Assembly (NCBI GenBank): GCA_001816585.1
Contig: MHCJ01000003.1
Coordinates: 220,228-284,227, forward strand
Source of the DNA: Candidatus Chisholmbacteria bacterium RIFCSPHIGHO2_01_FULL_52_32
GTDB taxonomy: Bacteria; Patescibacteriota; Microgenomatia; UBA1400; Chisholmbacteraceae
Reading direction: 5' to 3'
Length of the DNA stretch: 64,000 bases
The notes beneath the pieces were generated by a model. The model worked only from the letters and a program-made list of their open reading frames with translations, was not told where the DNA came from and did not search any database. This document shows, in pieces, positions 6,356-37,494 of this stretch (position 1 is its first letter; each line of letters begins with the position of its first letter). The position numbers and the translations under genes were made by a program.

Positions 6356-7417
6356 ATGGATATTGTCAAGCTTCTTGAGAAAACGATTTCGGCTGCTGCC
6401 TCTGATTTACATATTGTTGTTGGTTTACCGCCAATGATCCGCGTTGAGGGAGAACTGTCTCCCGTCGAAGAGAGGCCGCTGACTGATGAAGAAACCCAGG
6501 AGATGGTCTTTTCGCTGCTTTCCCCGGAGCAAAAGGACCTCTTCTTAGTGAACCGAGAGCTCGATTTCTCCTATGACCATGAAGCGAAAGGGAGATTTCG
6601 GGTCAATGCCTACCACCAAAAAGGATTTGTTTCGGCCGCGCTGCGGCTCATCCCTTCCCAGATCCGGACCATTGAAGAGCTGAACCTTCCGAAGGTCCTC
6701 CATGATTTCGCCAAGCTCCGCCAGGGGTTTGTATTGGTCACCGGGCCTACCGGGCACGGTAAATCGACAACCTTGGCTGCGGTTATCCAGGAGATTAACG
6801 AGACTCAAGCCTCCCACATCGTGACCGTTGAAGACCCCATTGAATACGTCTACCCCATCGGAAGAAGCATCATTTCCCAGCGCGAGCTCCACTCGGATAC
6901 TCACTCTTGGGAAATTGCTCTCCGAAGTGCCCTTCGAGAAGACCCGGATGTGGTTTTGATCGGAGAAATGCGGGATTATGAAACCATCGCGGCAGCCCTC
7001 ACCATCGCTGAGACCGGCCACTTGGTTTTTGCGACCTTGCATACCAACAGCGCGGCCCAGACCATTGACCGGATTGTCGATGTGTTCCCCGAGCACCAGC
7101 AAGCGCAGGTCAAGATGCAGCTTTCAAACACGCTTGAAGCGGTGCTGTCCCAACGGCTCCTTCCTTCGGTAACCGGCGGAAGAATTCCCGTTGCAGAGAT
7201 TCTTTTGGCAAATGCGGCAGTCCGGACGACCATTCGTGAAGGAAAGACCCATCTTATCGATAACGTCATTCAAACTTCTGCCGACATCGGCATGAACACC
7301 TTGGAAACCAGCATGGCCTATTGGGTAAAGGCAGGGAAGCTTTCGCTTCAGGTTGCGACAGAGTGGGCGCTCCGGCCGGCTGAACTTCGGCGGCTGGTCC
7401 GTGGCGGAAAGGAGTAA
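6356..7417 (+). CDS. pilT: twitching-motility / pilus retraction ATPase PilT
   Basis: 353 aa. Walker A VTGPTGHGKSTTLAA and typical PilT size. Immediately downstream of pilB. Confidence 0.9.
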   Translation: MDIVKLLEKTISAAASDLHIVVGLPPMIRVEGELSPVEERPLTDEETQEMVFSLLSPEQKDLFLVNRELDFSYDHEAKGRFRVNAYHQKGFVSAALRLIPSQIRTIEELNLPKVLHDFAKLRQGFVLVTGPTGHGKSTTLAAVIQEINETQASHIVTVEDPIEYVYPIGRSIISQRELHSDTHSWEIALRSALREDPDVVLIGEMRDYETIAAALTIAETGHLVFATLHTNSAAQTIDRIVDVFPEHQQAQVKMQLSNTLEAVLSQRLLPSVTGGRIPVAEILLANAAVRTTIREGKTHLIDNVIQTSADIGMNTLETSMAYWVKAGKLSLQVATEWALRPAELRRLVRGGKE

Positions 7418-7447
7418 GATTGTTGGCTTTCTGGTGGGCCTGCCTGT

Positions 7448-8656
7448 ATGGAGCAATTTCGGTATAAAGCAAAATCTCATGAGGGTGGAAAAGCACAAAG
7501 CGGAAAAGTTGAGGCACGTGACATTCGTCAGGCAGCCTCCATTCTTCGTGAAAGAGGCTTAGTGGTTGTTGGGCTTTCTCCGATCAGCCACCACATCCGC
7601 TTCACCTTCGTTTCCTCCTTTTTACATCGGGTGAAGTTTGTCGACATCGCTAATTTTACCCGTCAGCTGTCTACAATGATTACGGCAGGATTGCCGCTCA
7701 CGGACTCGTTGTCTCTGTTGGAAACCCAGGTTTCCCCCGGGCTTCAGACGATCGTTTCCGAAGTCCTGCGGGACGTCGAGGGTGGAAAGCCGCTCGGTGA
7801 GGCGCTCGAGAAGCACCCGCATGTATTTAACACGGTCTACGTTTCCTTGGTCCGGGCCGGGGAGGCGGCGGGAAAGCTTGATGAAATGCTCGCCAGACTT
7901 GCCGACAACCTTGAGAAAGAGAGGGAGTTCCGGGCGAAGACCAAAGGGGCAATGATCTACCCTCTTATCATTATTATCGGCATGATCATCGTCACGGCGG
8001 TCATGATGATTTTTGTGATTCCGAAGATGACTCAATTGTATGACGACTTTGGGGCGAAGTTACCCTTTGCCACTCTTCTTTTGGTGAATATCTCCAAATT
8101 CTTTTCCTCATTTTGGTATATTGTGCTTCTCATTGGGGTGGGGTCAAGTTGGATGTTTCGCCTTTGGCGTGCAACCCCCATAGGACGGCGATCGTTTGAT
8201 GAGTTTATCTTCCGCATACCGGTCTATGGGAACTTGCGCAGAGAGGTGTTGCTTGCAGAATTTTGTCGGACGCTGGGTTTGTTGGTGGGTGCGGGTGTTT
8301 CGATCGTTGAGGGATTGAATATCGTATCCGATACCTTGCCCAACCAGGTCTACGCCGATTCCGTGCGCGAGACCGCAAAAAGAGTCGAAAAAGGGCTTTC
8401 CGTTGCGGCAACAATCGCTTTGTATCCCCATTTCCCCCCTATTCTTTCGCAGATGCTTTCCGTCGGAGAGGAGACGGGAAAAATCGATGAGGTGTTATTG
8501 AAACTCGCCGTCTATTTTGAAACGGAATCGGAACACCTCATAAAAGGCTTGACAACCGCAATTGAGCCTCTTATCATGGTTTTCTTAGGCATCGGTGTCG
8601 GGTTTTTGGTCATCTCAGTGATCATGCCGATTTATAACCTCACCAGCCAAATGTAA
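7448..8656 (+). CDS. pilC: type IV pilus inner-membrane platform protein PilC (GspF family)
   Basis: 402 aa. Two GspF repeats with TM segments. Confidence 0.85.
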   Translation: MEQFRYKAKSHEGGKAQSGKVEARDIRQAASILRERGLVVVGLSPISHHIRFTFVSSFLHRVKFVDIANFTRQLSTMITAGLPLTDSLSLLETQVSPGLQTIVSEVLRDVEGGKPLGEALEKHPHVFNTVYVSLVRAGEAAGKLDEMLARLADNLEKEREFRAKTKGAMIYPLIIIIGMIIVTAVMMIFVIPKMTQLYDDFGAKLPFATLLLVNISKFFSSFWYIVLLIGVGSSWMFRLWRATPIGRRSFDEFIFRIPVYGNLRREVLLAEFCRTLGLLVGAGVSIVEGLNIVSDTLPNQVYADSVRETAKRVEKGLSVAATIALYPHFPPILSQMLSVGEETGKIDEVLLKLAVYFETESEHLIKGLTTAIEPLIMVFLGIGVGFLVISVIMPIYNLTSQM

Positions 8657-8775
8657 TAAAAGTTTAAAGTTCAAAGTTGAAGAGCCGAATTATCTCATGA
8701 CTGTTAACTTTTCATTTTTAACTTTTCACTTTTTTGCTGTCCAGAGAGGGGGTGAAAGGAAAAGCTACTTTCCTT

Positions 8776-9324
8776 ATGAAACTCAAACTCTCAAGAGGAT
8801 TTACCCTTATTGAGCTACTGATCGTCATTGCGGTGTTGGGAATCCTTGTGGTTGCCATCCTTTCCGCCCTTGATCCTTTAGAGCAATTACGCAAAGCGCG
8901 GGATGCCGGACGAAAATCCGATGCGGCTGAACTGTTGGCTGCTTACGAGCGGTACTACACCACCTACAACTGTTATCCTTGGGATACCGGTGCACCGACC
9001 TGTACGGCAAGTGTCCTTCGGTCATCGGCGGTAAACCCAGATTTTGCCGTTGCGGGAGCTGATTACCGTCTGATCACTCAAGGTGAGATGAAAGCCCAGT
9101 TTGCCAACCGGCGAACCGTGGTAGCGACCACGCCGGCAAACCAAAGACTTTATGTCAGTGAAGCAGCCGGGAGACAAGTTTCCGTCTGTTTTGAGCCCGA
9201 GTCAGGATCTGCGAGAACCGCTGGTGCGCAGGGACCGCTTCGGAACAACACGAACAGTGCGACGGCGGTCTGCGGAGCGGGAGCGTATCCAAGTACGACC
9301 TGCTATATCTGCGTACCGCAATAA
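8776..9324 (+). CDS. type IV major pilin paralog 1 (GspG-like; prepilin leader, N-methylation domain)
   Basis: Preferred start MKLKLSRGFTLIELLIVIAVLGIL (ATG 8776); the track ORF starts upstream at 8734. Prepilin peptidase site G|FTLIEL, C-terminal Cys pairs. Its 5' ~245 nt plus ~30 nt of leader are nucleotide-identical to paralog 2. Confidence 0.8.
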   Translation: MKLKLSRGFTLIELLIVIAVLGILVVAILSALDPLEQLRKARDAGRKSDAAELLAAYERYYTTYNCYPWDTGAPTCTASVLRSSAVNPDFAVAGADYRLITQGEMKAQFANRRTVVATTPANQRLYVSEAAGRQVSVCFEPESGSARTAGAQGPLRNNTNSATAVCGAGAYPSTTCYICVPQ

Positions 9325-9433
9325 CATACGCAGTGATCGTTGGGCAAACGCGTTATTCTTTGCCCTGAAGCGGGATAGTGTAGAGTGCCTTAAATACAAA
9401 GAGGGGGGGTGAGAGGAAAAACTATTTTTCCTT

Positions 9434-9988
9434 ATGAAACTCAAACTCTCAAGAGGATTTACCCTTATTGAGCTACTGATCGTCATTGCGGTGTTGGGAA
9501 TCCTTGTGGTTGCCATCCTTTCCGCCCTTGATCCTTTAGAGCAATTACGCAAAGCGCGGGATGCCGGACGAAAATCCGATGCGGCTGAACTGTTGGCTGC
9601 TTACGAGCGGTACTACACCACCTACAACTGTTATCCTTGGGATACCGGTGCACCGACCTGTACGGCGGTTGTCAACAGAGCTGTGGCTGTCAATCCGAAC
9701 TTTGCCGTGGCCGGTGATGATTACCGTCTGATCACTCAAGGTGAGATGAAAGCCCAGTTTGCAAACCGGCGGACTGTGATAGCCACGACGCCCGCTGCAG
9801 AGCGGTTGTTTGTGAGCGAAATTGCCGCTACGCGACAAGCTTCAGTCTGTTTTGAGCCCGAATCCGGATCGGCGAGAAACGCGGGTGCCCAAGGACCATT
9901 GCGCACCAATACGAATGCGCCGGATGCGGACAACCTCTGCACCGGGACGTATCCGAACGCATCTTGCTTTATCTGCGTTCCGCAGTAA
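9434..9988 (+). CDS. type IV major pilin paralog 2
   Basis: MKLKLSRGFTLIELLIVIAVLGIL... The N-terminal 78 aa are identical to paralog 1. The C-terminal half is divergent but retains identical internal patches (DYRLITQGEMKAQFANRRTV) and Cys pairs. Confidence 0.85.
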   Translation: MKLKLSRGFTLIELLIVIAVLGILVVAILSALDPLEQLRKARDAGRKSDAAELLAAYERYYTTYNCYPWDTGAPTCTAVVNRAVAVNPNFAVAGDDYRLITQGEMKAQFANRRTVIATTPAAERLFVSEIAATRQASVCFEPESGSARNAGAQGPLRTNTNAPDADNLCTGTYPNASCFICVPQ

Positions 9989-10024
9989 AGACATACAAAA
10001 ATCGAGACAACCTCTGATCGTGGT

Positions 10025-10840
10025 ATGATTGGTACGATGATCATCGGAGCTGTCTCGGTTTTTTTATTCGGTTTGGCTATAGGGAGTTTTCTTAACGTTG
10101 TTATCTATCGAACCATCCATGGGGAGAGCCCGTTTGAGGGCCGCAGCCGTTGTCCTCATTGTAAAAAAACCATTCGGGCAATCGACAACATTCCCCTTCT
10201 CTCCTTTCTTTTTCTCGGCGGCCGGTGCAGATACTGCAAGACGAAGATCTCCTGGACCTACCCGGTCATTGAATTGTTGACCGGGGTTCTATTTGTCTGG
10301 TGGTGGCTGGGCGGTTCGCTTTTCTTTAAACTGACCGCTGCCCCGTTTGTTTACCTTCAACCGTTGTTTTGGCTTACGGTGGGGACACTCCTTCTTTCCC
10401 TGTTTTTTACCGATTTTCTCTACGGTATCCTCCCTGATATTCTGGTCGGCGTATTGGGAGTATTGGCCCTGGCGTACCGAGTGCTATTGACCTATACAGG
10501 AATCATGCAGTGGCCCGATTTTTGGTATTCTATCGCAAGCGGAATCGGCGCTTCACTGTTTTTCTTTGCCCTCCACGCATTAACCCGCGGGCGCGGGATG
10601 GGCATGGGCGATGTGAAGCTTGGTTTGGCCTTCGGAATCCTTTTGGGGTGGCCGAGGACACTTGTAGCGGTGTTTGCCAGTTTTGTCAGCGGGGCTCTGG
10701 TCGGGGTGTGGTTACTTGCGAGCGGTCGTCGGCAGTTTGGTCAGACTATTCCATTCGGTCCGTTTCTTGTTCTCGGGACGATGGTTTCTCTCCTTTGGGG
10801 CGGGGCACTTTGGAGTTGGTATATGGGGATGATATTCTAG
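10025..10840 (+). CDS. pilD: prepilin peptidase / N-methyltransferase PilD (A24 family)
   Basis: 271 aa. N-terminal CPHC...CRYC zinc-binding tetrad, multi-TM, catalytic Asp motif GMGDVKL. Confidence 0.85.
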   Translation: MIGTMIIGAVSVFLFGLAIGSFLNVVIYRTIHGESPFEGRSRCPHCKKTIRAIDNIPLLSFLFLGGRCRYCKTKISWTYPVIELLTGVLFVWWWLGGSLFFKLTAAPFVYLQPLFWLTVGTLLLSLFFTDFLYGILPDILVGVLGVLALAYRVLLTYTGIMQWPDFWYSIASGIGASLFFFALHALTRGRGMGMGDVKLGLAFGILLGWPRTLVAVFASFVSGALVGVWLLASGRRQFGQTIPFGPFLVLGTMVSLLWGGALWSWYMGMIF

Positions 10841-11038
10841 TTAAAAGTTAAAAGTTAAAAGTTAAAAGTTTCAGAGTGAACAGAAAACAGTTAAAAGTGG
10901 AAAGTGAGAAGTTGAAAACGCCCATTTTAAACGAGCGACGGTAACTTTGAACTTTGAATTGTAATTTAAACTTTTCATTTTTTATTTTTAACTTGTTCCT
11001 GTTGACAGGATTTAGGGAGGCTGTCATACTTTTTTTGA

Positions 11039-11437
11039 ATGCGAAAAAACAGGGGATTTACGATCATCGAGCTTCTGGTGGCTTTGACGATCGTTGCCAT
11101 CATCACCGCTCTGGCGGTGGCAAGCTATACCTCCGCCAGACGAAATAGCCGGAATGCCAAGCGGCGGGGCGACATGGTCGCACTTCAGCAGGCGTTCGAA
11201 CAGTATTATCTTTCGAACCAGACCTACGCAACTCCCTGCTCGACTATGGCAACGGGATATTTACAAGGTTCCTTCCCCGCGGAAACGCTCGTCGGTTGGA
11301 ACGCGTACGCGCAAAACTGTACGGCTACGACGTACTGCGTTTGTGCACGTTTGGAGGGCGGAGGAGGCGGAAATGCGTCGAACAGCACGTGTACGTTCGG
11401 AACGGGGGAATATTTTTGCGTTGCGAACCAACAGTAA
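11039..11437 (+). CDS. type IV pilin / pseudopilin (N-methyl domain)
   Basis: MRKNRGFTIIELLVALTIVAIITALAVASY prepilin N-terminus. Cys-rich C-terminal domain. Confidence 0.8.
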   Translation: MRKNRGFTIIELLVALTIVAIITALAVASYTSARRNSRNAKRRGDMVALQQAFEQYYLSNQTYATPCSTMATGYLQGSFPAETLVGWNAYAQNCTATTYCVCARLEGGGGGNASNSTCTFGTGEYFCVANQQ

Positions 11438-11500
11438 TGAATGGCAAATAGCTGATGGCGAATAGCACATAGCGTAGAGGATAGAGAGAATATCTAATTT

Positions 11501-11526
11501 CTAAACCCTAAACCCTAAACCCTAAG
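11501..11526. repeat. (CCCTAAA)x3 heptamer array
   Basis: ctaaaccctaaaccctaaaccctaag read directly; upstream of the minor-pilin block. Confidence 0.9.
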
Positions 11527-11538
11527 AACCTGACATTT

Positions 11539-11979
11539 ATGACTATAAACCAAAGACTGAAGACCAGCGACCAACATGAATCGTCTGGTTTTACCCTGAT
11601 TGAGCTCCTGGTGGCTGTTGCCATCTTTGCGATTTTGACCGCGCTCGCAGTGGTGAGCTACACTTCGGCGAACCGAAGGGCGCGGGATGGGCGACGACGG
11701 TCGGATTTGGAGCAGGTGAGAACTGCCCTTGAGATCTATCGGGCGGATAACACCAGTTATCCGGTCGGGACAAACTTCACGACCATGGTGAATACCTTGG
11801 TCGCGGGAAATTATCTGTCTACAGCCCCAACCGATCCCCGGGGATACGGCTACTACTACAATTCCGCGACCGGGGTTGATTACTACGTTTGTGGCTACCT
11901 TGAAACGGGTGGTCCTGCCAATTGTGGCGCGAACTGTGCTGCTCCCGGAAACTGTAATTATCGAGTGGATAGCCCATGA
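11539..11979 (+). CDS. GspG-like pseudopilin
   Basis: GFTLIELLVAVAIFAILTALAVVSY N-terminus. TAPTDPRGYGYYYN resembles the GspG PTDPWG motif. Confidence 0.8.
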   Translation: MTINQRLKTSDQHESSGFTLIELLVAVAIFAILTALAVVSYTSANRRARDGRRRSDLEQVRTALEIYRADNTSYPVGTNFTTMVNTLVAGNYLSTAPTDPRGYGYYYNSATGVDYYVCGYLETGGPANCGANCAAPGNCNYRVDSP

Positions 11980-12989
11980 AACAAGTTAAAAGTTTAAAGT
12001 TAAAAGTTAAAAGTTCTTCATTCGGCTTTACGCTGATTGAGATTATGGTTGCGGTGATGGTGATCAGCTTCATGTCCGGAGGAGGAGTGGCAGCGTATCG
12101 ACGCTTAAATGATCGGGCCCTGGTCGAAGGCGCAGCCAAACAAGTCGAGCAGGCGCTGCGGGAGACGCAGAAACGGGCTTCTTCAGGAGTGAAGCCAACG
12201 GGGTGCAGCGGAGCGTTGGCCTCGTATTCGATCTCAATGGGCGGGGCGCTCGGTGAGGATCGATATTCGATTCAAGCTGACTGCGCGACGACCGATCCTG
12301 CGGCGGAAACGTTTGATCTCCCAACCGGCACCCGTTTTCCACTGGAAAAAAGAGTCAGTTTCCCGGCTTTGGGAAAGGGGGCAACTCCGGAAACGATATG
12401 GGTGCAGAATGACTCGCAGCAGATTACGTATGAACTCCGTGTCAGTCAGGGTGGGTCCCTGAGCGGTTTGGGGCAGGCAGAGGGAGCCGTGCCAACCCCG
12501 ACGCCGACACCGATCCCGGAGGCGGCAAACTTGGTTCCCAACCCGGGCTTTGAGATAGGCTCGCCTGCCTCCTGGGGTACGAGTTCCTCCGGATGCAGTA
12601 TCACCCCAACCTATCAATGGACCTCCACTACAAAGCATAGCGGGACGTATGCGGTGGGGATTAAATATACCGGAGCTGTGGGCTGCACGGCTCAATATCA
12701 GACCTCATCGACTGCGGCCCCTGTTATTGCGGGGTCATCGTATTACTTCTCCGGTTGGATCAAAGCCTCGGGAGTGGTGAACAAGGCATTTCTTCGGGTC
12801 AGTTTTTACAACTCCTCTGGGTTGCTTATTACGAGCGTGAACTCGGCTTCGCAGGTGGGAACGACGTCCTGGACCCAGGTAACACAAACCATGAGTGCTC
12901 CGTCCGGTGCTGTGTCGGCGCGTATTCATGTCCGCCTGCTTGACGCCGGAACAGCGTACTTCGATGATCTCATGTTCGCCAAGCTCTAA
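11976..12989 (+). CDS. minor pilin with C-terminal carbohydrate-binding-module-like beta-sandwich domain
   Basis: Start overlaps the previous gene stop (ATGA). Prepilin-like N-terminus FGFTLIEIMVAVMVISF, a PTPTPTPIPE linker, then LVPNPGFEIGS...W...YFDDLMFAKL, resembling CBM4/9-type sugar-binding modules. Confidence 0.7.
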   Translation: MKQVKSLKLKVKSSSFGFTLIEIMVAVMVISFMSGGGVAAYRRLNDRALVEGAAKQVEQALRETQKRASSGVKPTGCSGALASYSISMGGALGEDRYSIQADCATTDPAAETFDLPTGTRFPLEKRVSFPALGKGATPETIWVQNDSQQITYELRVSQGGSLSGLGQAEGAVPTPTPTPIPEAANLVPNPGFEIGSPASWGTSSSGCSITPTYQWTSTTKHSGTYAVGIKYTGAVGCTAQYQTSSTAAPVIAGSSYYFSGWIKASGVVNKAFLRVSFYNSSGLLITSVNSASQVGTTSWTQVTQTMSAPSGAVSARIHVRLLDAGTAYFDDLMFAKL

Positions 12990-12996
12990 GGCACAT

Positions 12997-13461
12997 ATGC
13001 TTCGGAAAAATGGTCAAACCATGGTTGAGATGTTGGTTGCGGTGGCCATCGTTGTGTTGGTGTTGGTTGCGGTGGTATCAAGGGTGGTGGCAGCGGTCGC
13101 GAGTGCGAATTTTGCCAGGAATCAAGCCCTTTCCACCCGATTTTCCCAGGAAGGCCTTGAATGGGCGCGTTCCCAACGGGACTCGCTCGGTTGGGCCGGT
13201 TTTTCACCCTATGTCTCAAGCAGTCCTACTTACTGCGTTCCTGATCTTACGCAGGGAATCGGTTCGCTGACTTCCGGGAGTTGTTTGACAACCGCGACAA
13301 TTCCCGGGACGATCTTTTTACGCGAGGTGAGATTTATCTACGTTGCTCCCGGAGGTCAAGAGCCCTATACCGATATTATTTCAACCGTTTCTTGGAGAGA
13401 TCGGGTCGGGTGGCATCGTTCTACTCTCGCGACCCGATTAACACGGTGGAGCACACAATAA
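12997..13461 (+). CDS. pseudopilin (minor pilin)
   Basis: Preferred start MLRKNGQTMVEMLVAVAIVVLVLVAV at ATG 12997; the track ORF 12895 would overlap the previous gene. Hydrophobic prepilin-like N-terminus. Confidence 0.65.
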   Translation: MLRKNGQTMVEMLVAVAIVVLVLVAVVSRVVAAVASANFARNQALSTRFSQEGLEWARSQRDSLGWAGFSPYVSSSPTYCVPDLTQGIGSLTSGSCLTTATIPGTIFLREVRFIYVAPGGQEPYTDIISTVSWRDRVGWHRSTLATRLTRWSTQ

Positions 13462-13466
13462 AAATA

Positions 13467-13997
13467 ATGGGGAAAATTTCTGAACGCGGCTATACGATGA
13501 TGGAACTGATTATGGTCGTGGGGATTGTTGCCCTGCTGTCCTTGACTGCCACTGCCCTTCTCTTGGCGAGTCTTTCCGGAACCGGAAAGGCATCTGCCTT
13601 GGCGGTGGTCAAGCAAAATGGGGACTTTGCAATTGGGGTTATCGAACGTCTAGTTCGGGATGGCATGGGGGTTTCTTGTACTACCGTCGCAGGATTTGAC
13701 GAACTTACGGTGACCGATGCCAACGGAACGACGACTTTTAAAGTCGAGAATGACACGTCTCTCGTGCCTGCAGTTCCCCGAATTGCATCCAATTCGGCCA
13801 GTTTTCCGCAAAACTATTTAACCAGTGAGAAAATCCAGGCCTCAAACTTTCAATGCACGCATGCCGCCGGTTCGGATGGCGTCCCTGACGTCGTTTTCGC
13901 CTCTTTTCACCTCACTGTCGGTAATCCCGGCGTGGATCGACCTTCGGATGTCGCACAGGATACGTTTGAGACCCGGGTATCCCTGCGAACCTACTAG
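13467..13997 (+). CDS. pseudopilin (minor pilin)
   Basis: Preferred start MGKISERGYTMMELIMVVGIVALLSL at ATG 13467; the track ORF starts at 13281. Confidence 0.65.
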   Translation: MGKISERGYTMMELIMVVGIVALLSLTATALLLASLSGTGKASALAVVKQNGDFAIGVIERLVRDGMGVSCTTVAGFDELTVTDANGTTTFKVENDTSLVPAVPRIASNSASFPQNYLTSEKIQASNFQCTHAAGSDGVPDVVFASFHLTVGNPGVDRPSDVAQDTFETRVSLRTY

Positions 13998-14010
13998 GGG
14001 CGGAGAATAC

Positions 14011-14110
14011 AGGGTATAGCGTATAGGGTTTAGGGTTTAGGGTATAGGGTATAGGACAGAAGGCAGAGGACAGAAGACAGAGAAAAGAAAACAGAGAACA
14101 GAGAAACAGA
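14011..14110. repeat. (TTTAGGG/TATAGGG)n heptamer array followed by an (ACAGAR)n purine-rich repeat
   Basis: agggtatagcgtatagggtttagggtttagggtatagggtatagg, then acagaaggcagaggacagaagacagagaaaagaaaacagagaacagagaaacagac. The heptamers are the reverse complement of the CCCTAAA array at 11501. Confidence 0.9.
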
Positions 14111-14190
14111 CATTCTTTCACAAGCGTTTGCCCTTCACGTTCACTTCTCGTCGGTTGACACGATCAGCGGCATGCGGCTACAATGGATCT

Positions 14191-14964
14191 ATGAAGCGGA
14201 GCTTTTCCTGGCAGTATGGAAGAGGTCAAAGCGGTCAGGTTGGTATTGTTATCCTTCTTTTGACTGTAGTTCTGTTGACGATCGGACTTTCGATTGCCTC
14301 CCGTACCATTACCGATGTTCGTCTTTCGCGTCAGGAAGAGGAAAGCTCGCGGGCATTTAACGCGGCAGAGGCCGGGATTGAGGAAGCGCTTCGGCTAAAC
14401 CTGTCCGCATTGATCGCAGCCGGCGGGGCGGGGTCTGTGACGGTTGGCGGAATTACGGCAAATTATCGAGTGGCTGAAGAAAACACGCTTGAGACCCAGA
14501 TTGATGAAGGTGAGACTATCGAGGTGAATGTCGCAGGACTCGGAAGCGGCAACCAGGTTTCCATCGATTGGGCGCGGGATACTTGTCCGTCCGCCGCATC
14601 CGTTGTGGTTGCGGTGTACAACGGGACTTCGACAACCATCCGAAGGACTCCTTATCAGGGTTGCCCCCGAGGTGATAACTTTGCTTCATCGAGTCCTGGC
14701 GTGGATGGGTACCAATTCCGCACAATTGTTTCCCTTGCGAATGGCGACCAGTTCATTCGGGTCCGTGCCGTGTATGCCGGGACCCAGTTGCGTGTGTTGG
14801 GTGCCGGAGGTACGGCTTTGCCCGTCCAGTTTTGGCGAATCCGCTCGGAAGCACAGACCCTTGGAGGAGAGACACGCTCGGTTGAGGTTACTCAAACTCC
14901 CCCTGCTCCTCCGTCCATTTTCGACTTTGTCATTTTTTCAGGGAGCTCTCTAACGAAACCATAG
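14191..14964 (+). CDS. PilX-like minor pilin
   Basis: Preferred start MKRSFSWQYGRGQSGQVGIVILLLTVVLLTIGLSIA at ATG 14191 (track ORF 14128). Single N-terminal TM, then a predicted extracellular domain. Confidence 0.55.
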   Translation: MKRSFSWQYGRGQSGQVGIVILLLTVVLLTIGLSIASRTITDVRLSRQEEESSRAFNAAEAGIEEALRLNLSALIAAGGAGSVTVGGITANYRVAEENTLETQIDEGETIEVNVAGLGSGNQVSIDWARDTCPSAASVVVAVYNGTSTTIRRTPYQGCPRGDNFASSSPGVDGYQFRTIVSLANGDQFIRVRAVYAGTQLRVLGAGGTALPVQFWRIRSEAQTLGGETRSVEVTQTPPAPPSIFDFVIFSGSSLTKP

Positions 14965-14968
14965 ATAC

Positions 14969-16000
14969 TTGCCCATGGCGCGCCTCATTGGTCTTGACCT
15001 TGGAAGTTTTTCCATCAAAGTTGTCTGTCTGTCGAAACACGGAAAGGGGTATCGACTTGAGGCAATTGGTATCGCTCTCAACCCCTATGGTGCGAGGCCC
15101 GGCGGTGATGACGCAAGTCAGGTAAAGGTCGCCGAGGCGGTAAAAAAACTTCTTTCAGATACCCGACTGTCCTCTGCCAAGGCAATGCTGGCGCTCCCGG
15201 AATCCTCGGTGTATACCAGAGTGGTTGAGATGCCTTCCCTCTCCGATTCCGAACTCGCTTCCGCGATCCACTGGGAGGCTGAGCAATACGTTCCTGTCCC
15301 TTTGGATCAAGTCAATATTGATTACGAAGTGATATCCCGACCCGATAAGAGTAGCGAGAAAGAAAAGATGGAGATATTTTTGGTGGCGGCGCCGAAAACG
15401 GTCGTCTCAAGAACCGTCGAATTTGCCTCAAAGTGCGGTATTGAAGTGGTGGGATTGGAAACCGAGATGGTGTCGCTGGCGCGGGTGATGGTTCCTGAAG
15501 ATCAAGGACTCGGGCCAACAATGCTGATTTCTCTCGGGGCGTCAAGTACGAACCTGGCTGTGGTACGGGACGGAATGCTCGTTCTGACGCACTCCATTGA
15601 ATCCGGCGGAACGGCTCTGACGCGTGCGATCGCAACCGAGTTTGGACTGGATTTTCCCCAGGCTGAGGAGTACAAGCGAAGTTATGGTCTTGAGCCAACC
15701 CAGCTTGAGGGCAAGGTGCGGAACGCGTTGCTGCCTTTGGTTGATCGACTCCTTTCTGACGTGCGAAAGGCCATCCAATACTACAATTCCTCCAACCAGG
15801 AAGCCCCGATTAAACGAGCGGTTCTGGCGGGGGGAACGGCGCTTCTTCCAGGACTCGTGTCTTATGCTGCGGTGAACTTTGGTATGGAGGTTGTAATGGG
15901 AAATGCGTTTTCATTCGTTGAACCGTCTGCCAACGCCGCAATTCCTCAAGATACGGTTTCTTTTGGTACTGCAGTGGGGCTCGCGATGCGCGTCTTATGA
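14969..16000 (+). CDS. pilM: type IV pilus assembly protein PilM (actin-like ATPase fold)
   Basis: 343 aa. N-terminus LIGLDLGSFSIKVV, typical of PilM/FtsA-like proteins. Followed by PilN/PilO-like genes. Confidence 0.8.
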   Translation: MPMARLIGLDLGSFSIKVVCLSKHGKGYRLEAIGIALNPYGARPGGDDASQVKVAEAVKKLLSDTRLSSAKAMLALPESSVYTRVVEMPSLSDSELASAIHWEAEQYVPVPLDQVNIDYEVISRPDKSSEKEKMEIFLVAAPKTVVSRTVEFASKCGIEVVGLETEMVSLARVMVPEDQGLGPTMLISLGASSTNLAVVRDGMLVLTHSIESGGTALTRAIATEFGLDFPQAEEYKRSYGLEPTQLEGKVRNALLPLVDRLLSDVRKAIQYYNSSNQEAPIKRAVLAGGTALLPGLVSYAAVNFGMEVVMGNAFSFVEPSANAAIPQDTVSFGTAVGLAMRVL

Positions 16001-16545
16001 ATATATCAATTAACCTTCTTAAGGAGTCTCAACATCTTCAAGCCCGTTTGCGCCGCATGGGGCTTATGCTTCAGACAGGGAGCCTGGTCGTCTTAGTCGC
16101 TTTTGCCGCGGTGGTTTTTTTTACCATAAGCTATCTCGTTTGGTCTCAGACACAGGCTAACCGGCTAAATTCGGATATCGACCAAGCCAAGGTGAGCATT
16201 GAGGAAATGCGACCCCGGGAATCCAAGCTGTTGTATGTGAAGCAGAAGCTTTCCTTTGCCACGCGCGTTCTTGGCGAACCGGGTCTGCGGCACGATTTAG
16301 CAACCGAGCTTTACCGGATTGCTGAAGGAGAAGTCGAGGTTTCGCATATGACGATCAGCGGGGGAGATGAGGCGTTCAGGGTTGAAGCTCAAGCCTCCGA
16401 CGTTTTTTCTCTGGTCCGTTTGCTTGATTTAGTTATGACTTTTGCCGGTGAGAACGAGATAAACCGGATATCCGGAGAGAGCTTTACCCGCACGGAAGAG
16501 GGAGGCTACCAATTTTCCGTTTTGCTGGCTCTGGGAGGCGAGTGA
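15997..16545 (+). CDS. pilN: PilN-like bitopic membrane protein
   Basis: 182 aa. Short cytoplasmic N-terminus, one TM (LVVLVAFAAVVFFTISYLVW), coiled-coil periplasmic part. Start overlaps the pilM stop. Confidence 0.5.
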   Translation: MNISINLLKESQHLQARLRRMGLMLQTGSLVVLVAFAAVVFFTISYLVWSQTQANRLNSDIDQAKVSIEEMRPRESKLLYVKQKLSFATRVLGEPGLRHDLATELYRIAEGEVEVSHMTISGGDEAFRVEAQASDVFSLVRLLDLVMTFAGENEINRISGESFTRTEEGGYQFSVLLALGGE

Positions 16546-17375
16546 TGAAAATCGAATTTCCTTCACAAATTTCATTTCGACACTTACTTCAGATTAAGAA
16601 GTATGTCTACTTTCCGCTCATCACGCTGGTGGTGGTGTCGGCTCTGTTGGTTTTTGTGATCATCCCGACGTTTCGAAATTTGACCTTGCTCAGATCGGAA
16701 ATTTCACGGAGAAAGGAGATACAAAGAGGGCTCGAGATGAAGATTGAAATCCTTCGGGGTCTTGATGAAGCTCGTCTGCTTGAACAGGTGGAGACGCTCG
16801 AGAAGGCGATTCCCAGCCGAAAAGATGTATTCTTACTCCTCACTTCTCTCAATGGGTTGGCCTCTCAGACGGGGGTGGCTTTGGGGAGCTTTTCACTTAG
16901 CCCCGGAAGTCTGGCTACCGGGGCAGCAACGGGCTCCGCCACCAGCCAACCGGATAGACCTGCGGAAACCGGTTCGGGCAGGGCCGCCGCTTCCTCACAG
17001 CTTGCCTCAATAGAGGTCGGCATTGAAGTACTAGGCCCTTTTGAGGGAGTCCAGATGTTTCTTTCCGGTTTGGAACATGTTGTTCCTCTCATGAGGCTGA
17101 CCTCTGTGGATCTCGCACCCGCGACTTTAGAAACCCCCGTTTTCGCTTCTACATCCTCGGCTTTCCCTTTGGTTTCGGATATCACCGCAAACGCAATCCT
17201 TGGAATGTTTTACGCTCCTCTCCCGACCGAGCTCGGGGCCGTTACCGATCCCATTGAGACTCCTTCCGAAACTGAACAGGGGGTATACGAACAGCTACTT
17301 TCCTTTACTTCATTTCCGGCTTCTTCATCCGCCAACATTCCGACCGGCCGGGAGGATGTCTTTGCGCCGTTCTAA
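16542..17375 (+). CDS. pilO: PilO-like bitopic membrane protein
   Basis: 277 aa. One TM then coiled coil, Ser/Ala-rich linker. Start overlaps the pilN stop. Confidence 0.45.
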   Translation: MMKIEFPSQISFRHLLQIKKYVYFPLITLVVVSALLVFVIIPTFRNLTLLRSEISRRKEIQRGLEMKIEILRGLDEARLLEQVETLEKAIPSRKDVFLLLTSLNGLASQTGVALGSFSLSPGSLATGAATGSATSQPDRPAETGSGRAAASSQLASIEVGIEVLGPFEGVQMFLSGLEHVVPLMRLTSVDLAPATLETPVFASTSSAFPLVSDITANAILGMFYAPLPTELGAVTDPIETPSETEQGVYEQLLSFTSFPASSSANIPTGREDVFAPF

Positions 17376-17475: not shown

Positions 17476-17772
17476 CTAGGGGGTTTCTTCGGCTTGAGGA
17501 GGTTCAACCTGAGAGGGGGCTTGGTGTGAGGCGGCCGGCGGTTCTACGAGATCGACACGGACACGTTTCCCCTGCTTCATGGCAGCCAGACGCATGAGGG
17601 TACGGAGGGCGGTGATGATTTTTCCTTCCTTTCCAATGACCCTTCCGATGTCTTCCTGGTGGACCTTGAGTCTTAAGGTTGATGACCCTTGTTCATCCAC
17701 TATTTCTTCAACAGAGACTTCCTCAGGATGGTCCACAATTTTGCTCACGATGTCCAGGAGGAGTTGGTTCAC
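17476..17772 (-). CDS. khpA: KH-domain RNA-binding protein (KhpA/YlqC-like)
   Basis: KH core VNQLLLDIVSKIVDHPEEVSVEE...IGRVIGKEGKIITALRTLMRLAA. Likely GTG start at 17772 forming a GTGA start/stop overlap with rpsP; the track ORF extends to 17829, which would overlap rpsP by 60 nt. Confidence 0.6.
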   Translation of the reverse strand: MNQLLLDIVSKIVDHPEEVSVEEIVDEQGSSTLRLKVHQEDIGRVIGKEGKIITALRTLMRLAAMKQGKRVRVDLVEPPAASHQAPSQVEPPQAEETP

Positions 17773-17999
17773 GCTTTTTTCTCCAAAAGGCGCACCGTTT
17801 GGGTGGGCTGTGCACCTTTCTTTAACCAAGCATTGTAACGCTCTTTATTAATCCTCACGGTCGCCGGTTCCGTAAGGGGGTCGTAGATGCCGAGATTTTC
17901 GAAGTATTTCCCATTCGACTTACTTCGGTCAACCGCCACGACTATCCTGTATTTTCGCTGGTTTCGTTTTCCTGTCGGAAAAAGCTTTATCTTAAGCAT
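17769..17999 (-). CDS. rpsP: 30S ribosomal protein S16
   Basis: MLKIKLFPTGKRNQRKYRIVVAVDRSKSNGKYFENLGIYDP matches S16. Confidence 0.9.
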   Translation of the reverse strand: MLKIKLFPTGKRNQRKYRIVVAVDRSKSNGKYFENLGIYDPLTEPATVRINKERYNAWLKKGAQPTQTVRLLEKKA

Positions 18000-18012: not shown

Positions 18013-18699
18013 TCAGGAAGGGTTCAATTTCTCAAGGGCTGACCGGGCTCCTTCTTGCTGGGCTTGTTGCTTGCTCTTCCCTACCCCTTTGGCGACCCGT
18101 TCTCCGTTCACGAGCACCGCCACGGTGAATATCTTACTATGATCCGGTCCTTCTTCTTTTTCCACCCTGTAGATTGGAGCCGGGAGGCCTTTAGCCTGGA
18201 CCTTTTCCTGGAGGAGACTTTTGGCATCCCTGTCTAAATGATTGGTAATGATTTCTTCAAGGATGGGAAAGAGGTGTTTTTTCACGAACGCTTTAACCGT
18301 TGTTTTCCCGCTATCCTTGTAGATTGCGCCCACCATGGCCTCGAACACGTTTGCCAGAAGCTGTGGGTTTTCCCTCCCGCCTGTCGCATCTTCCCCTTTG
18401 GAAAGACGGAGATGGCTTCCTAACTTCAGCACCTGGGCAATCCGGGCAAGGGTTTCCGTCTTTACCAGAGATGATCGGAGAGCCGTAAGCGTTCCTTCCG
18501 GTTCTTCGGGGAATTTTTCATAGAGCTCTTCGGTTACTACCAATTCAAGCACAGCATCTCCCAAGAATTCGAGGCGTTCATTGGACTGAGTTCTTTCTTT
18601 CGGATGTTCGTTTAACCAGGAACGATGGGTTAGCGCTTGGAGAACGAGTCCTTCATCCTTTATCGGTATTCCCCTGATTTTCTTTGGGTGTTTCTTCAT
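18013..18699 (-). CDS. rnc: ribonuclease III
   Basis: Signature ERLEFLGDAVLELVVTEELY plus C-terminal dsRBD. Confidence 0.9.
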   Translation of the reverse strand: MKKHPKKIRGIPIKDEGLVLQALTHRSWLNEHPKERTQSNERLEFLGDAVLELVVTEELYEKFPEEPEGTLTALRSSLVKTETLARIAQVLKLGSHLRLSKGEDATGGRENPQLLANVFEAMVGAIYKDSGKTTVKAFVKKHLFPILEEIITNHLDRDAKSLLQEKVQAKGLPAPIYRVEKEEGPDHSKIFTVAVLVNGERVAKGVGKSKQQAQQEGARSALEKLNPS

Positions 18700-18706: not shown

Positions 18707-18934
18707 TCAGGTTTCTTGGAAAAACGCGACGATATCGTTTACGGTCCGAAGCTTTCTCGCATCTTGAGGAGTCACGTGTTGCGAGAATTCCTTTTCAAGC
18801 TTTGTAAAGAGATCGGCAACCTCAAGATCTTCGGCGTTGAGGTCTTTTCGGAGATCTGCATTCGGGGTCAGTTCTTGAGCGGCGATACCCAGTTGATCTG
18901 AGATGATTTTTTTGATTTTTTCTTCGTCGTTCAT
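18707..18934 (-). CDS. acyl-carrier-protein-like protein with Asp in place of the phosphopantetheine-attachment Ser
   Basis: 75 aa. Aligns along its length with bacterial ACP ([14 protein letters not shown]...[20 protein letters not shown] versus EERVKKIIGEQLGV...[20 protein letters not shown]). The DSLD serine position reads EDLE. Sits in the conserved acpP-rnc synteny. Confidence 0.7.
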
Positions 18935-19353
18935 GACCGGATTTGCCTGTTTGTTTCCCCCTCGTTTCCTTGCGGTTTGGCCCCTCTCCCCTCTTTTTCC
19001 GGGAAGAGTTTTTTCAATGCGCTTCCGAGTACCCCGTTAACGAAAGATGCGCTCGATTGACTGCCGTAGGTTTTGGCAAGCTCAATGGCTTCATCAATGA
19101 CCACTTTCCGCGGTTCTTTTTTTATGAGCAATTCTGTGAGCGCCAGTCTTAATATTGCCAAATCGACTTTATTGATTTTTTCCAATGGCCACTCCGTTGC
19201 GCATGAGCGAATCAGGGCGTCCGATTGGGCTAATCCTTCGATTGCTTTTCTGGCCAATCCCCCCAACTTTCTGTGGGGATGGAAGCTAAAGGCAAATAAC
19301 TCGCGTACCGCTTCTTCCCGCCTTCGATGGCGAGGGTCATCTGCACGTTTCAA
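18931..19353 (-). CDS. nusB: transcription antitermination factor NusB
   Basis: 140 aa. NusB-like helical fold motifs ([12 protein letters not shown]..., ALTELL). Confidence 0.8.
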
Positions 19354-19622: not shown

Positions 19623-21668
19623 CTAGTTGGGTTCGATGTCTTTTTCAAGGGTAGAAAGCTTCGTTCTCACCGATTGCAGTTTCAGAAGCTTGGAGTTCTC
19701 CTCAAGGATTTCTCGAGCGAGCCTTTGAGTGGTTGCGATAAGCCGTGTATCTGAAAGTTCGGCGTACTTTAGGTTTACATACCCATGTTGTTTTGTCCCG
19801 TAGATTTCCCCTGGTCCACGCAGTTTAAGATCGAACTCCGCGAGCTGCCCTCCGGATTTTGCCGTTCCCAAGATCCGCAGCCGGGAGAGGCCCTGTGTCT
19901 TGGGATTTGAAGGAAAGAGGAGGCAGTAGCTTTCCTTGATCCCCCTGCCTACTCTGCCCCGGAGTTGGTGGAGCTGTGCAAGGCCAAAACGCTCCGCTCC
20001 CTCGATCATCATGACTGTCGCATTCGTGATGTCGATTCCCACTTCAACGACTGGTGTGGTGACGAGGATATTGGTTTTGCCTTTCCGAAACTTCTGGATT
20101 TCTTCCTCTTTTTTCCGTGACGAGAGGCGTCCGTGAAGCAGTGAAAGCGCAAGATCCGGGAAGACCTTGTCTTTCAGCCTGTCGAATTCCTCTGTTGCGG
20201 CACGGACTTGGAGCATCGTTTCGTTGGTACTCTCTTCGATCAGCGGACAAACGATGAAGGCTTGTTCCCCGAGCTTTATCCGCTCTCTCATCCATCTGTA
20301 GGCAGACTCCCGCTTGTGGGGAGGAATCACCCATGTCTTTATCCTGACCCGCCCCGGAGGCATTTCATCAAGGATGGAGAGGTCGAGGTCTCCATAGAGG
20401 GTGAGGGCAACCGTGCGAGGGATTGGGGTTGCCGTCATGGTAAGGATATGCGGAGTGCGGCTCTTTTTGATAAGCAAAGCCCGTTGTTCTACACCGAACC
20501 GATGTTGCTCATCGATGACCACGAGGGCATGGGAGCCGGTTTCTACCGTCTTATAGAGGAGGGCGTGTGTGCCGATCGCGACGTCGTATTTGGTGAGGTT
20601 TTCTTTCATTGATGAAGTTACCATCGCGATTCTCATCCCGAACGGAGCCAGAAGCTTCTTTATGGTCTCAAGGTGTTGCATGGCGAGGATCTCTGTCGGT
20701 GCCATCAGGGCTGACTTTTCCCCACTGATGAAGGCCGCATAGATCGCGATTGCCGCAATGACGGTTTTACCCGAGCCTACATCTCCCTGAAGGAGCCGGT
20801 TCATCGGTTTGTCCTGCCCTAAATCTCCCAATACTTCTTGGGTTACCCTCCTTTGTGCTTGCGTCAGCCTGAAAGGCAGACTGGAAAGGAAGACGTTCAG
20901 CTTGCTGTCCTCGATGACAAGTTTCTTTCCGAGCTTTCTCCTATCCCAACTTTTCCGTCTATTCTGAACTGCCAGCTGGATGTTTACCATCTCTTCGAAC
21001 GCAAGTCTGCCCCAAGCCTTTTTGGCTTCGGAGAGCGCACTTGGGAAATGGAGGGAAACAATCGCTTTGGGCAAAGGGACGAGGCTCTCTTGCTTTAGAA
21101 TAGATTCGGGAAGCCACTCCTCAAGTTCTGAGGCAAGGAGAGGAAGGAGCGGAGCGATCCGGGAACGGATCCACTTCGAGCTTACGCCTTTTGTTTCCGG
21201 GTAGACCGGGACGAGTCGGCCGGTGTGGATTGTGGTACCTTTTTCACGCATGTCGGTACTGGAGAGCTTCTCGTATTCCGGTGAGGTAAACTGGACCCCT
21301 TTTCCAAATTGTTGCGCTGTCCCTGCCAGGCTTACCCAGGACCCTGGTTTGAGCGTATTGGGGATATAGGGTTGATTAAACCAGGTTGCCTTAAGAGTTC
21401 CGGTTTGATCCGTGATGACGATTTTTTGGATGGTTTTGTGACTCCTGGTGAAAACGTTTCGGCTGGTTTTAACTTGTCCCCGGATCGTGACGACTTCCCC
21501 ATTTTGAACTGATCCGATCGGGGAAACCCGCGAATAATCCTCATACCGACGCGGGGGATGCATAAGGAGGTCTCCGACAGAATCAATGTCCAGTTTATTG
21601 AGGCGCCCGGCGTAGGTTGGGCCAACCATGTGCAGGGCTCGCACGGGGGTTTTTAAGGTGAGCTTCAT
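19623..21668 (-). CDS. recG: ATP-dependent DNA helicase RecG
   Basis: Wedge domain, helicase motif I GDVGSGKT, DEQHRFG, C-terminal helicase domain. Preferred start MKLTLKTPV at 21668; the track ORF extends to 21794. Confidence 0.85.
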   Translation of the reverse strand: MKLTLKTPVRALHMVGPTYAGRLNKLDIDSVGDLLMHPPRRYEDYSRVSPIGSVQNGEVVTIRGQVKTSRNVFTRSHKTIQKIVITDQTGTLKATWFNQPYIPNTLKPGSWVSLAGTAQQFGKGVQFTSPEYEKLSSTDMREKGTTIHTGRLVPVYPETKGVSSKWIRSRIAPLLPLLASELEEWLPESILKQESLVPLPKAIVSLHFPSALSEAKKAWGRLAFEEMVNIQLAVQNRRKSWDRRKLGKKLVIEDSKLNVFLSSLPFRLTQAQRRVTQEVLGDLGQDKPMNRLLQGDVGSGKTVIAAIAIYAAFISGEKSALMAPTEILAMQHLETIKKLLAPFGMRIAMVTSSMKENLTKYDVAIGTHALLYKTVETGSHALVVIDEQHRFGVEQRALLIKKSRTPHILTMTATPIPRTVALTLYGDLDLSILDEMPPGRVRIKTWVIPPHKRESAYRWMRERIKLGEQAFIVCPLIEESTNETMLQVRAATEEFDRLKDKVFPDLALSLLHGRLSSRKKEEEIQKFRKGKTNILVTTPVVEVGIDITNATVMMIEGAERFGLAQLHQLRGRVGRGIKESYCLLFPSNPKTQGLSRLRILGTAKSGGQLAEFDLKLRGPGEIYGTKQHGYVNLKYAELSDTRLIATTQRLAREILEENSKLLKLQSVRTKLSTLEKDIEPN

Positions 21669-22144
21669 GAGGAGATTATAACTGACTCTTTCTTTACTTG
21701 TCCAAACGCGGTGCAACTTTCTTTGCGTGCCCAAAGAAAGTGGCGAAAGAAAGGGCACCCCATGAGCGGTCTTTCGGGAACAGGTTTCGCTCATGCTGTG
21801 CGATCAAACTCCTATCCGCCAACTGGCGGATCGTTACACAGTGATCGCTTCTTTACAGTAATCGCTCAACCTGCTCTCGATACGCTTCGCTCAAAGGGGA
21901 ATTTGTTTCGGTTGAATTCGCTCACTTCGTTCTCGACCAAGTCTGACTTGGTTCTCGAATGGCTGCGTTCAAAGGGGGAAGGGATGGATTGGTCTTGTAT
22001 TTGCTCAATAGTAATAGAAAAGCGGTAGGAGTGCAGTGGTGGTAAGGACTTTTCCTGGCCGTGAGTTCCGTCTCTCGGTGCTCCCCCGCCGACGAGGCGG
22101 GGTTGCGCTTCATAGTCCATCTTGGTGTCAGTCGAAGGAAAGGA

Positions 22145-24347: not shown

Positions 24348-24605
24348 TTAACCGTAAAGATTGCTGTGCGAATCGATTACAACAAAAATTGCTTCTCCTG
24401 CTTCTCTTTTAAAAATTGCTCTTATATCGCCAGTAACATTTATGCTTCTGTAGCCGGAGTACTTCCCTTTGAGTGCGTGGTTGTTCAAAATTGGATGAAA
24501 CTCGTCTTTACTAAAAAGTCTTAATCTGTCTTCTAGTTTTTCTTTTACTTGGGGGAGCAATTTCTTATAACTCTTTTTGAAGTTAGCATGATAGACTATG
24601 ATCAT
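24348..24605 (-). CDS. relE: type II toxin, RelE/ParE superfamily
   Basis: 85 aa. LKGKYSGYRSINVTGDIRAIFKREAGEAIFVVIDSHSNLY matches the RelE/YafQ fold signature. Its start overlaps the stop of the upstream antitoxin gene (ATGA). Confidence 0.7.
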   Translation of the reverse strand: MIIVYHANFKKSYKKLLPQVKEKLEDRLRLFSKDEFHPILNNHALKGKYSGYRSINVTGDIRAIFKREAGEAIFVVIDSHSNLYG

Positions 24606-24877
24606 CGAGATTTCAGCCAGTCAATAGACTCTTTCACCGACTTAAATCTAGGGGATAGATTTAGACCCCTTTTTATGTCTTCATCTACTCTATCAAGAAG
24701 CTTCTCGAGCTCGCGACTCATATGAGGCGTATCGGAAAAAACTATTTTCCTTGTTCTAATAAAATTTCTTAGAGACGCATTAATGACATCACTCAGGTTT
24801 AACCCCAATTTTCGTGCAAGCGCCGCTGCATTTTCTTTCACCTCTTTATCAGCTTTGATGTGGATTACTGTTTGCAT
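24602..24877 (-). CDS. relB: RelB/DinJ-family antitoxin
   Basis: 91 aa. IKADKEVKENAAALARKLGLNLSDVINASLRNFI resembles the DinJ/RelB ribbon-helix-helix. 4-nt overlap with relE. Confidence 0.65.
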   Translation of the reverse strand: MQTVIHIKADKEVKENAAALARKLGLNLSDVINASLRNFIRTRKIVFSDTPHMSRELEKLLDRVDEDIKRGLNLSPRFKSVKESIDWLKSR

Positions 24878-37487: not shown

Positions 37488-37494
37488 CAGTATG

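Follow-up and report, generated by a model that had tools for sequence, protein, structure and literature searches.

The acpX gene product

acpX is the term used here for an open reading frame (ORF) at positions 18707–18934 (minus strand) that encodes a predicted 75 amino acid (aa) protein with the fold of acyl carrier protein (ACP) in Candidatus Chisholmbacteria bacterium RIFCSPHIGHO2_01_FULL_52_32. It lies between nusB and rnc in a 64,000 nucleotide (nt) stretch of contig MHCJ01000003.1 (positions 220,228 to 284,227), which was analyzed as a whole and is termed the window; coordinates are those of the window unless another locus is named. The protein lacks the serine that serves as the phosphopantetheine (Ppant) attachment site. 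The assignment to ACP comes from the PF00550 profile, AlphaFold2 (AF2) modeling and a Foldseek comparison. The PF00550 PP-binding profile matches acpX over profile positions 1–66 of 67 (E-value = 1.1e-9, 38.9 bits, cutoff 20.8). Identity to bacterial ACPs is 33%–38%, end-to-end and without gaps, and includes the solved ACPs of Aquifex (2ehs, E-value = 6e-14), E. coli (1acp/9ka6, E-value about 5e-12) and S. aureus (4dxe). The AF2 model (predicted local distance difference test score, pLDDT, of 86) displays the four ACP helices at residues 3–15, 36–50, 56–61 and 65–73 and superimposes on E. coli ACP with a template modeling (TM) score of 0.92 and a root mean square deviation of 1.1 Å.

In the gapless alignments the acpX segment DLNAEDLEV covers the canonical serine-motif stretch, which places Asp36 (codon GAT, positions 18827–18829, minus strand) at the position of the Ppant-bearing Ser36. 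The complete set of Ser and Thr residues, read from the sequence, is S12, T23, T44, S51, T55, T64 and T75. Residues 24–43 contain neither amino acid and none is found near the N-terminus of helix II. An attachment serine hidden by a shifted alignment is ruled out for the window protein by these residues together with the gapless alignments. An earlier sequence-only reading of this DNA had proposed both end-to-end homology with ACP and a Ser-to-Asp change at the Ppant site; the homology is borne out by profile, alignment and model, and the profile alignment gives no Ser elsewhere at the site. The canonical site of acpX is thus closed to phosphopantetheinylation, and the window protein would be unable to carry acyl groups, since Asp36 replaces Ser and the Asp-Ser pair is no longer under selection (see below).

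All 12 NCBIfam ACP models score acpX below their cutoffs, e.g. TIGR00517 (58.5 vs. 70.45) and NF002148 (67.1 vs. 71). This is the reason for the NCBI name “hypothetical protein”; members of the family are called “acyl carrier protein” by JGI and “Carrier domain-containing protein” in UniRef. The aa composition gives an isoelectric point (pI) of 4.6 with 16 D/E and 10 K/R residues, compared with a pI of 4.05, 20 D/E and 5 K/R for E. coli ACP. The protein is identical to NCBI OGY18068.1 of Candidatus Chisholmbacteria, and the identical sequence is encoded on 22 contigs of several sources, among them the 1.158-Mb MHCM01000003.1 (GCA_001816955.1). Chisholmbacteria belong to the Microgenomates group of the Candidate Phyla Radiation (CPR), in line with the CPR-type genome that the sequence-only reading had assumed.

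The serine position in the acpX family

The loss of the serine extends beyond the window. The seven closest database homologs (59%–99% identity) have D, D, D, D, E, E and G at the Ser position. A profile search was made of 1.84 billion cluster representatives and the best 150 hits were taken, 65 of which are short single-domain proteins. Within this set of best hits, 37 of the 65 short proteins are without Ser and display D (14), P (9), E (7), Q (2), T (2), G, K or R instead. The proteins without Ser share the signature DLNAxxLEIADL. A second search brought in further members, with P, D, T, Q or V at the site, among them a Candidatus Woykebacteria protein with Pro. In a neighbor-joining tree of a 69-column alignment, 41 leaves (36 without Ser and five with Ser) are grouped apart from 23 canonical proteins that have the DSLD motif. 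The column entropy at positions 35 and 36 is 2.50 and 2.63 bits in the 41 family members, values that few other columns of the protein reach; both values are 0 in the 23 canonical ACPs drawn from the same hit list.

The sequence-only reading had taken Asp36 for a constitutive negative-charge mimic. This proposal, including that of a phosphomimic, is rejected, as the orthologs show D, E, G, P, Q, T, K, R, V and S at a hypervariable column. The charge at position 36 is not selected, because the column is one of the most variable in the family. In the simplest view Asp36 would be an N-terminal capping residue of the helix in place of Ser. The amino acids D, P, E, S, T, G and Q are generally favored at helix N-termini, and the residues found at the site are mostly of these types, which fits a purely structural role in starting helix II.

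One Ser-containing protein, P0057, stands at the edge of the tree and was left out of the family; its context is ruvB followed by two tandem PP-binding genes. These stand-alone genes are adjacent (90 and 78 aa, positions 6001–6632 of locus L020, GCA_964640635.1), and no fab gene is present within 6 kb. P0057 is the product of the first of the two; it has the helix-II signature of the acpX family, LEISDI, and retains Ser. In addition, many unrelated proteins of 150–400 aa are made up of ACP domains in tandem, two or three per chain (P0013–P0039, P0045, P0096 and others). In P0021, P0034, P0038, P0045 and P0096 one domain displays DSLD and a sibling domain is without Ser. Degenerate carrier domains therefore appear to arise repeatedly in other proteins as well.

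Selection and family-specific conservation

acpX is under purifying selection as strong as that on its housekeeping neighbors. Compared with the window sequence, acpX of the metagenome locus L018 has 80% aa identity, with a proportion of nonsynonymous differences (pN) of 0.116, a proportion of synonymous differences (pS) of 0.62 and a ratio of nonsynonymous to synonymous substitution rates (dN/dS) of about 0.10. The nusB gene of the same locus has 81% aa identity, pN 0.110 and pS 0.75, and its dN/dS is not computable, dS being saturated. For the more distant Chisholmbacteria loci, acpX of L007 (61% aa identity, pN 0.219, pS 0.68) gives a dN/dS of 0.14 and acpX of L009 (49% aa identity, pN 0.310, pS 0.71) gives 0.18; rnc of L007 (61% aa identity, pN 0.292, pS 0.73) gives 0.13. 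These dN/dS values are approximate, with dS near saturation. The acpX ORF is intact in all members, with a chain length of 72–91 aa, at a divergence down to 32%–40% identity.

The family also conserves residues of its own. Column entropies (family vs. canonical ACPs, in bits) are lower in the family at S12 (0.46 vs. 2.12), G16 (0.17 vs. 1.21), L28 (0.70 vs. 1.49), N33 (0.70 vs. 1.80), I39 (0.89 vs. 2.20) and D41 (0.17 vs. 1.30). Ser12 is kept in 37 of the 41 members and is variable in canonical ACPs. Constraint is relaxed at M44, a position of contact with fatty-acid synthesis (FAS) enzymes (2.75 vs. 1.33), and at E49 (1.86 vs. 0.77). The family-specific conserved residues are concentrated in loop I and helix II. 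The pattern appears to be that of a protein with a changed function rather than a lost function.

The acpX operon and its conservation

In the window acpX is part of a block of minus-strand genes. At the upstream end is the recG helicase gene (19623–21794; Pfam RecG_wedge, DEAD and Helicase_C, and synteny by tblastn), followed by rpmF, which encodes ribosomal protein L32 (19373–19528; PF01783, E-value = 4e-16), and by nusB (18931–19353; PF01029, E-value = 5e-24). The nusB stop codon and the acpX start codon share the sequence ATGA, i.e. the two genes overlap by 4 bp. On the other side rnc, encoding RNase III (18013–18699; PF14622, E-value = 3e-39, and dsrm, E-value = 3e-17), starts 7 nt past the acpX stop codon, in agreement with the acp-rnc synteny that the sequence-only reading had noted. 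Downstream of rnc are rpsP, for ribosomal protein S16 (17769–17999; PF00886, tblastn synteny), and a gene for a khpA-type KH-domain RNA-binding protein (17476–17829; PF13083 KH_KhpA-B, tblastn synteny), which is the last gene of the block here. A promoter/terminator scan, whose overall counts do not differ from those of shuffled sequence, displays no terminator-like site on the minus strand from nusB to rnc.

The recG ORF as given is 723 aa long. Most public gene calls are of 681 aa and start further downstream, and tblastn matches of recG orthologs begin at residues 28–43; roughly 42 codons at the 5' end of the ORF are probably untranslated. At its other end the block abuts a large type IV pilus cluster (4497–17375) with PilB-like and PilT-like ATPases, PilC, a prepilin peptidase, several N_methyl pilins and PilM/N/O-like proteins. 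This adjacency at the khpA end is kept in Woykebacteria and in metagenome contigs.

The block recG-rpmF-nusB-acpX-rnc-rpsP-khpA recurs in 11 contexts that are independent of each other, with identities as low as 40%. These include Chisholmbacteria loci (L007 and L008/L009), metagenome contigs (L010–L018 and L022) and a Woykebacteria locus (L023). Wherever the contig reaches far enough, acpX is directly after nusB and directly before rnc, and most of the 11 contexts have recG-rpmF upstream and rpsP-khpA(-trmD) downstream. The 4-bp nusB/acpX overlap is present in six contexts (L011, L012, L013, L014, L015 and L017), and acpX and rnc overlap by 1–14 bp in five. The 4-bp overlaps suggest translational coupling. 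Colinearity between the window and the Woykebacteria locus extends over approximately 20 kb (pheST-PBP-tyrS-recG-...-pilMNO).

The gene trmD follows khpA in L013 (1636–2289), L017 (4134–4796) and L023 (11461–12162), whereas the Chisholmbacteria window and L009 have no trmD at this place. The Woykebacteria locus also has, close to its acpX block (positions 20063–20246 of L023), a gene for a PF05635 23S rRNA intervening-sequence protein. Intervening sequences in 23S rRNA are cut out by RNase III in other bacteria, which bears on the idea of a role in rRNA processing (see below).

The taxonomic spread is based on two Chisholmbacteria loci, the database names of homologs and the one Woykebacteria locus. 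A single-protein scan of genome contigs gave zero relatives, and a scan with a 15-sequence alignment recovered just the two Chisholmbacteria loci. On this basis acpX belongs to a family of orthologs that extends at least over Chisholmbacteria and Woykebacteria, two CPR candidate phyla.

The gene order also relates acpX to the housekeeping ACP gene acpP. The order in E. coli is rpmF-plsX-fabH-fabD-fabG-acpP-fabF, and the chromosomal position of acpX matches that of acpP relative to rpmF. In B. subtilis the order is recG-fapR-plsX-fabD-fabG-acpA-rnc-smc-ftsY-...-ffh-rpsP-ylqC(khpA)-...-trmD, which gives acpA the position of acpX relative to rnc. The genes plsX and fabH/D/G, which elsewhere are the lipid genes flanking acpP, are absent from the acpX locus. 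The Microgenomates block reads like the ancestral acpP arrangement from which the lipid genes have been lost but not the ACP gene. For this reason acpX would be orthologous to acpP rather than a carrier-like paralog that is unrelated to it. By sequence comparison acpX is clearly homologous to AcpP; the orthology is probable.

Lipid and cofactor genes

Among the window ORFs scanned, Pfam annotation displays no fab, pls or phosphopantetheinyl transferase (PPTase, acpS) domain. The absence of fab genes from the window had been part of the sequence-only reading, and it holds in this annotation. A phmmer search of six-frame ORFs with E. coli and B. subtilis AcpS as queries found no AcpS in 258 kb, i.e. 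in the 64-kb window plus about 194 kb of related loci. With E. coli ACP as the query, each Microgenomates locus in the same 258 kb gave one ACP-like ORF and no more.

As background, CPR bacteria are reported, from the genomes of one study, to be without the enzymes that produce ACP and those that require it, including ACP synthase; even the most lipid-capable CPR bacteria are reported to be without ACP synthase and FabD, and CPR bacteria must make their membranes from scavenged lipids (PMC7242380). Patescibacteria are likewise described as without fatty-acid synthesis (PMC12455944). Searches of the literature on ACP in CPR/Patescibacteria found nothing on a serine-less ACP or on the acpX family.

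Comparison with known ACP systems

acpX has the four-helix fold, the size and the acidic character of bacterial AcpP/AcpA (TIGR00517, PF00550). Unlike AcpP, it is missing the serine of the D-S-L motif, the D-S dipeptide is unconstrained, there are no fab or pls genes nearby, the protein is less acidic, and S12, G16, N33, I39 and D41 are conserved residues of its own. Without the serine, and with scores below the equivalog cutoffs, acpX would not qualify as a functional AcpP.

The mitochondrial ACP (mACP) of Plasmodium appears to be the closest precedent and is alike in logic. It has no Ppant, outlives the loss of type II FAS, and is essential through stabilization of the Isd11-Nfs1 complex (PMC8547962). 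Both are proteins of the ACP fold without a modifiable serine that are retained under selection. acpX differs in being bacterial rather than from a eukaryotic organelle, in having nusB and rnc as its context rather than the LYR protein Isd11 and Nfs1, and in that different members of its family replace the serine by different residues. The acpX neighborhoods seen contain no desulfurase or LYR-like gene. To our knowledge, LYR proteins or adaptors are not known in bacteria.

A second mitochondrial system shows an ACP in ribosome assembly. The mitochondrial ACP (mtACP) of the MALSU1-L0R8F8-mtACP module is described as a structural subunit in assembly of the mitoribosome large subunit (e.g. PMC8067846; also mentioned in PMC8547962). 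That protein is acyl-Ppant-modified and binds through an LYR adaptor, whereas acpX has no attachment serine; and, unlike in the MALSU1 module, the putative link of acpX to the ribosome comes from operon context.

DUF1493 (PF07377) is an ACP-like family of unknown function. Its match to the window protein scores 20.3 bits, which is below the cutoff of 21, and is partial: residues 17–52 of acpX, i.e. the loop-I/helix-II region, align with positions 24–59 of the 108-position profile. Fourteen of 36 family members match DUF1493 at E ≤ 1e-3 (best E-value = 1.4e-6), but each of the 36 matches PF00550 better.

Possible function and alternative explanations

The explanation we favor, and consider likely, is that acpX is an acpP ortholog that has lost the carrier function and is kept as a protein-binding module. 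It would descend from the housekeeping acpP in Microgenomates, a lineage in which type II fatty-acid synthesis has reportedly been lost, and would work without a cofactor as a small acidic protein-binding module. The putative binding surface is the loop-I/helix-II face, formed by D31-L32-N33-A34, E38, I39, D41, E47 and F50 together with S12 and G16; this would be the surface that contacts partner enzymes in ACPs. The sequence-only reading had also suggested a repurposed non-acylated ACP, and a dN/dS of about 0.1 and the same operon in 11 contexts support it as far as sequence allows.

A partner in rRNA transcription, rRNA processing or ribosome biogenesis is a speculative possibility. It is put forward because of the strict retention of acpX, the nusB gene inserted directly upstream, the gene overlaps and the rpsP-khpA(-trmD) genes downstream. 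More specifically, acpX might serve the NusB/RNase III machinery for rRNA antitermination and processing in Microgenomates, as a dedicated subunit or regulator that needs no cofactor, or might help to assemble the unusual ribosomes of this lineage, but this proposal is tentative and we regard it as doubtful. No fusion of an acpX-family protein with NusB or RNase III was found among the 263 proteins retrieved; the multi-domain hits are unrelated tandem ACPs.

Several points weigh against these proposals. The neighbor-joining tree that delimits the family has no support values, the dN/dS values carry the near-saturation noted above, and the 258 kb searched for AcpS are a small fraction of the genome. 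The operon neighborhood may simply be inherited, the acpA-rnc adjacency being probably ancestral, and would then be weak evidence for a ribosomal role. The acpA-rnc adjacency is present in Firmicutes also, where ACP has no known RNA role. Finally, five of the 41 family members have Ser at the site, so that a few lineages could still be modifiable. One of these, P0041 (DLGASSVEI), is encoded in the same nusB-acpX-rnc operon and its nearest relatives have P or Q at the site; for these reasons its Ser appears to be one of several drifting states.

The other explanations differ in what they leave unaccounted for. If acpX were a decaying relic, i.e. a functionless acpP leftover that has not been deleted, or a mere spacer coupling the translation of nusB and rnc, the loss of the defining serine, the free drift of the site and the absence of fab genes at the locus would be expected, and the tight overlaps with both neighbors could make deletion costly. 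However a relic would not be expected to display a dN/dS of about 0.1, a pN equal to that of nusB, intact ORFs of constant length at 32%–40% identity in two named candidate phyla, or conserved residues of its own that canonical ACPs do not share, and streamlined CPR genomes drop unused genes fast. We consider a relic highly improbable; selection together with the conserved operon fits a repurposed non-acylated protein instead. That acpX is still a carrier, which shuttles scavenged acyl chains for membrane lipid assembly, is very unlikely; its modification would be at a residue other than the canonical one, e.g. Ser12, or by an atypical transferase. Ser12 is conserved in the family in the manner described above, some members have Ser or Thr at or beside the canonical site (e.g. 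P0041, and P0031 with DLNASPLEI), and the need for scavenged lipids in CPR membranes would give such a carrier a use (PMC7242380). Against this, the window protein has no Ser or Thr in residues 24–43, and the D35-S36 dipeptide that AcpS needs is the least conserved part of the protein. Ser12 is inside helix I (residues 3–15 of the AF2 model), and PPTases act at a helix N-terminus. An AcpS-like ORF was not found in the 258 kb, and CPR bacteria are reported to be without ACP synthase.

acpX might also be a cofactor-free ACP kept for a classical moonlighting contact that is unrelated to its operon, e.g. with RelA/SpoT, an SMC/MukB-type protein, a cysteine desulfurase or a STAS domain transporter. 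The sequence-only reading had named SpoT, MukB, IscS and LpxA/D as partners of ACP; nothing found here favors any of these, and the gene context points to NusB, RNase III and ribosome biogenesis instead. In favor of such a contact, the acidic helix II positions E38, D41, E47 and E49 are retained. E. coli ACP has many partners outside of FAS (PMC8547962, PMC3340395), and the Plasmodium mACP is kept for binding of Nfs1-Isd11. None of the genes for these partners is linked to acpX in the 11 contexts, however, and conservation has changed at canonical contact positions (M44 and D35) and has been gained elsewhere, which suggests a new interface. In addition, several of these bacterial contacts need the holo or acylated form of ACP. 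A moonlighting contact of this kind is rather unlikely, and the likely explanation continues to be an acpP ortholog that has been repurposed as a protein-binding module.

Other features of the window

The window has an unusually dense set of tRNA genes, fifteen (from Rfam) within 13 kb at positions 36172–49604. Six of these form a tight minus-strand array at 40745–41351, and there are plus-strand groups at 44754–45261 and 48910–49604.

An ORF of 134 aa for a PD-(D/E)XK nuclease (31165–31569, minus strand; PF13366, E-value = 2e-28) is located between pheS (31607–32686) and pheT (29120–31147). Since no gene separates pheS from pheT in L023 of Woykebacteria, the nuclease ORF looks like an insertion. 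The interval between tyrS and recG contains several small ORFs without a Pfam match and a probable toxin-antitoxin pair, i.e. an 85 aa YafQ-type toxin ORF that overlaps an upstream ORF of 91 aa (24348–24877, minus strand). This interval is compact in L009 and L023, and the material in the window appears to be a lineage-specific insertion.

Further ORFs are at positions 37574–38191, 39661–40272, 49660–51282, 47692–48684, 56958–58862 and 55272–55679. They encode a DUF5660 protein, two proteins without a Pfam match (203 and 540 aa), two transglutaminase-core proteins and a holin-like protein with four transmembrane segments (PF04020).

Significance

Few bacterial proteins are as conserved or as highly connected as ACP, and it has been difficult to tell its non-lipid contacts apart from its carrier role. 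In the acpX family evolution would already have split the two. The selected function of this ACP would need no prosthetic group, because the serine and the lipid genes of the locus are gone and the protein is kept as strictly as NusB. An acpP ortholog that is without the serine, is kept by selection and occurs in at least two CPR candidate phyla is noteworthy and of use for experiments. It falls short of a revolution, since the apicomplexan case came first and CPR bacteria were already known to have lost lipid synthesis. A practical consequence is that metabolic reconstructions that count members of the acpX family as ACP would wrongly give CPR genomes a working carrier.

The identity of the partner would show which contact of ACP outlives fatty-acid synthesis, and would provide a bacterial counterpart to the Plasmodium mACP. 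The ribosomes and rRNA genes of CPR bacteria have known peculiarities, and the partner might reveal a new factor of rRNA processing or ribosome assembly in these organisms. If the proposed relation to NusB and RNase III is true, the ACP fold would have been recruited to ribosome biogenesis in free-standing bacteria without acyl-Ppant, in convergence with the mitochondrial ACP-LYRM-MALSU1 module.

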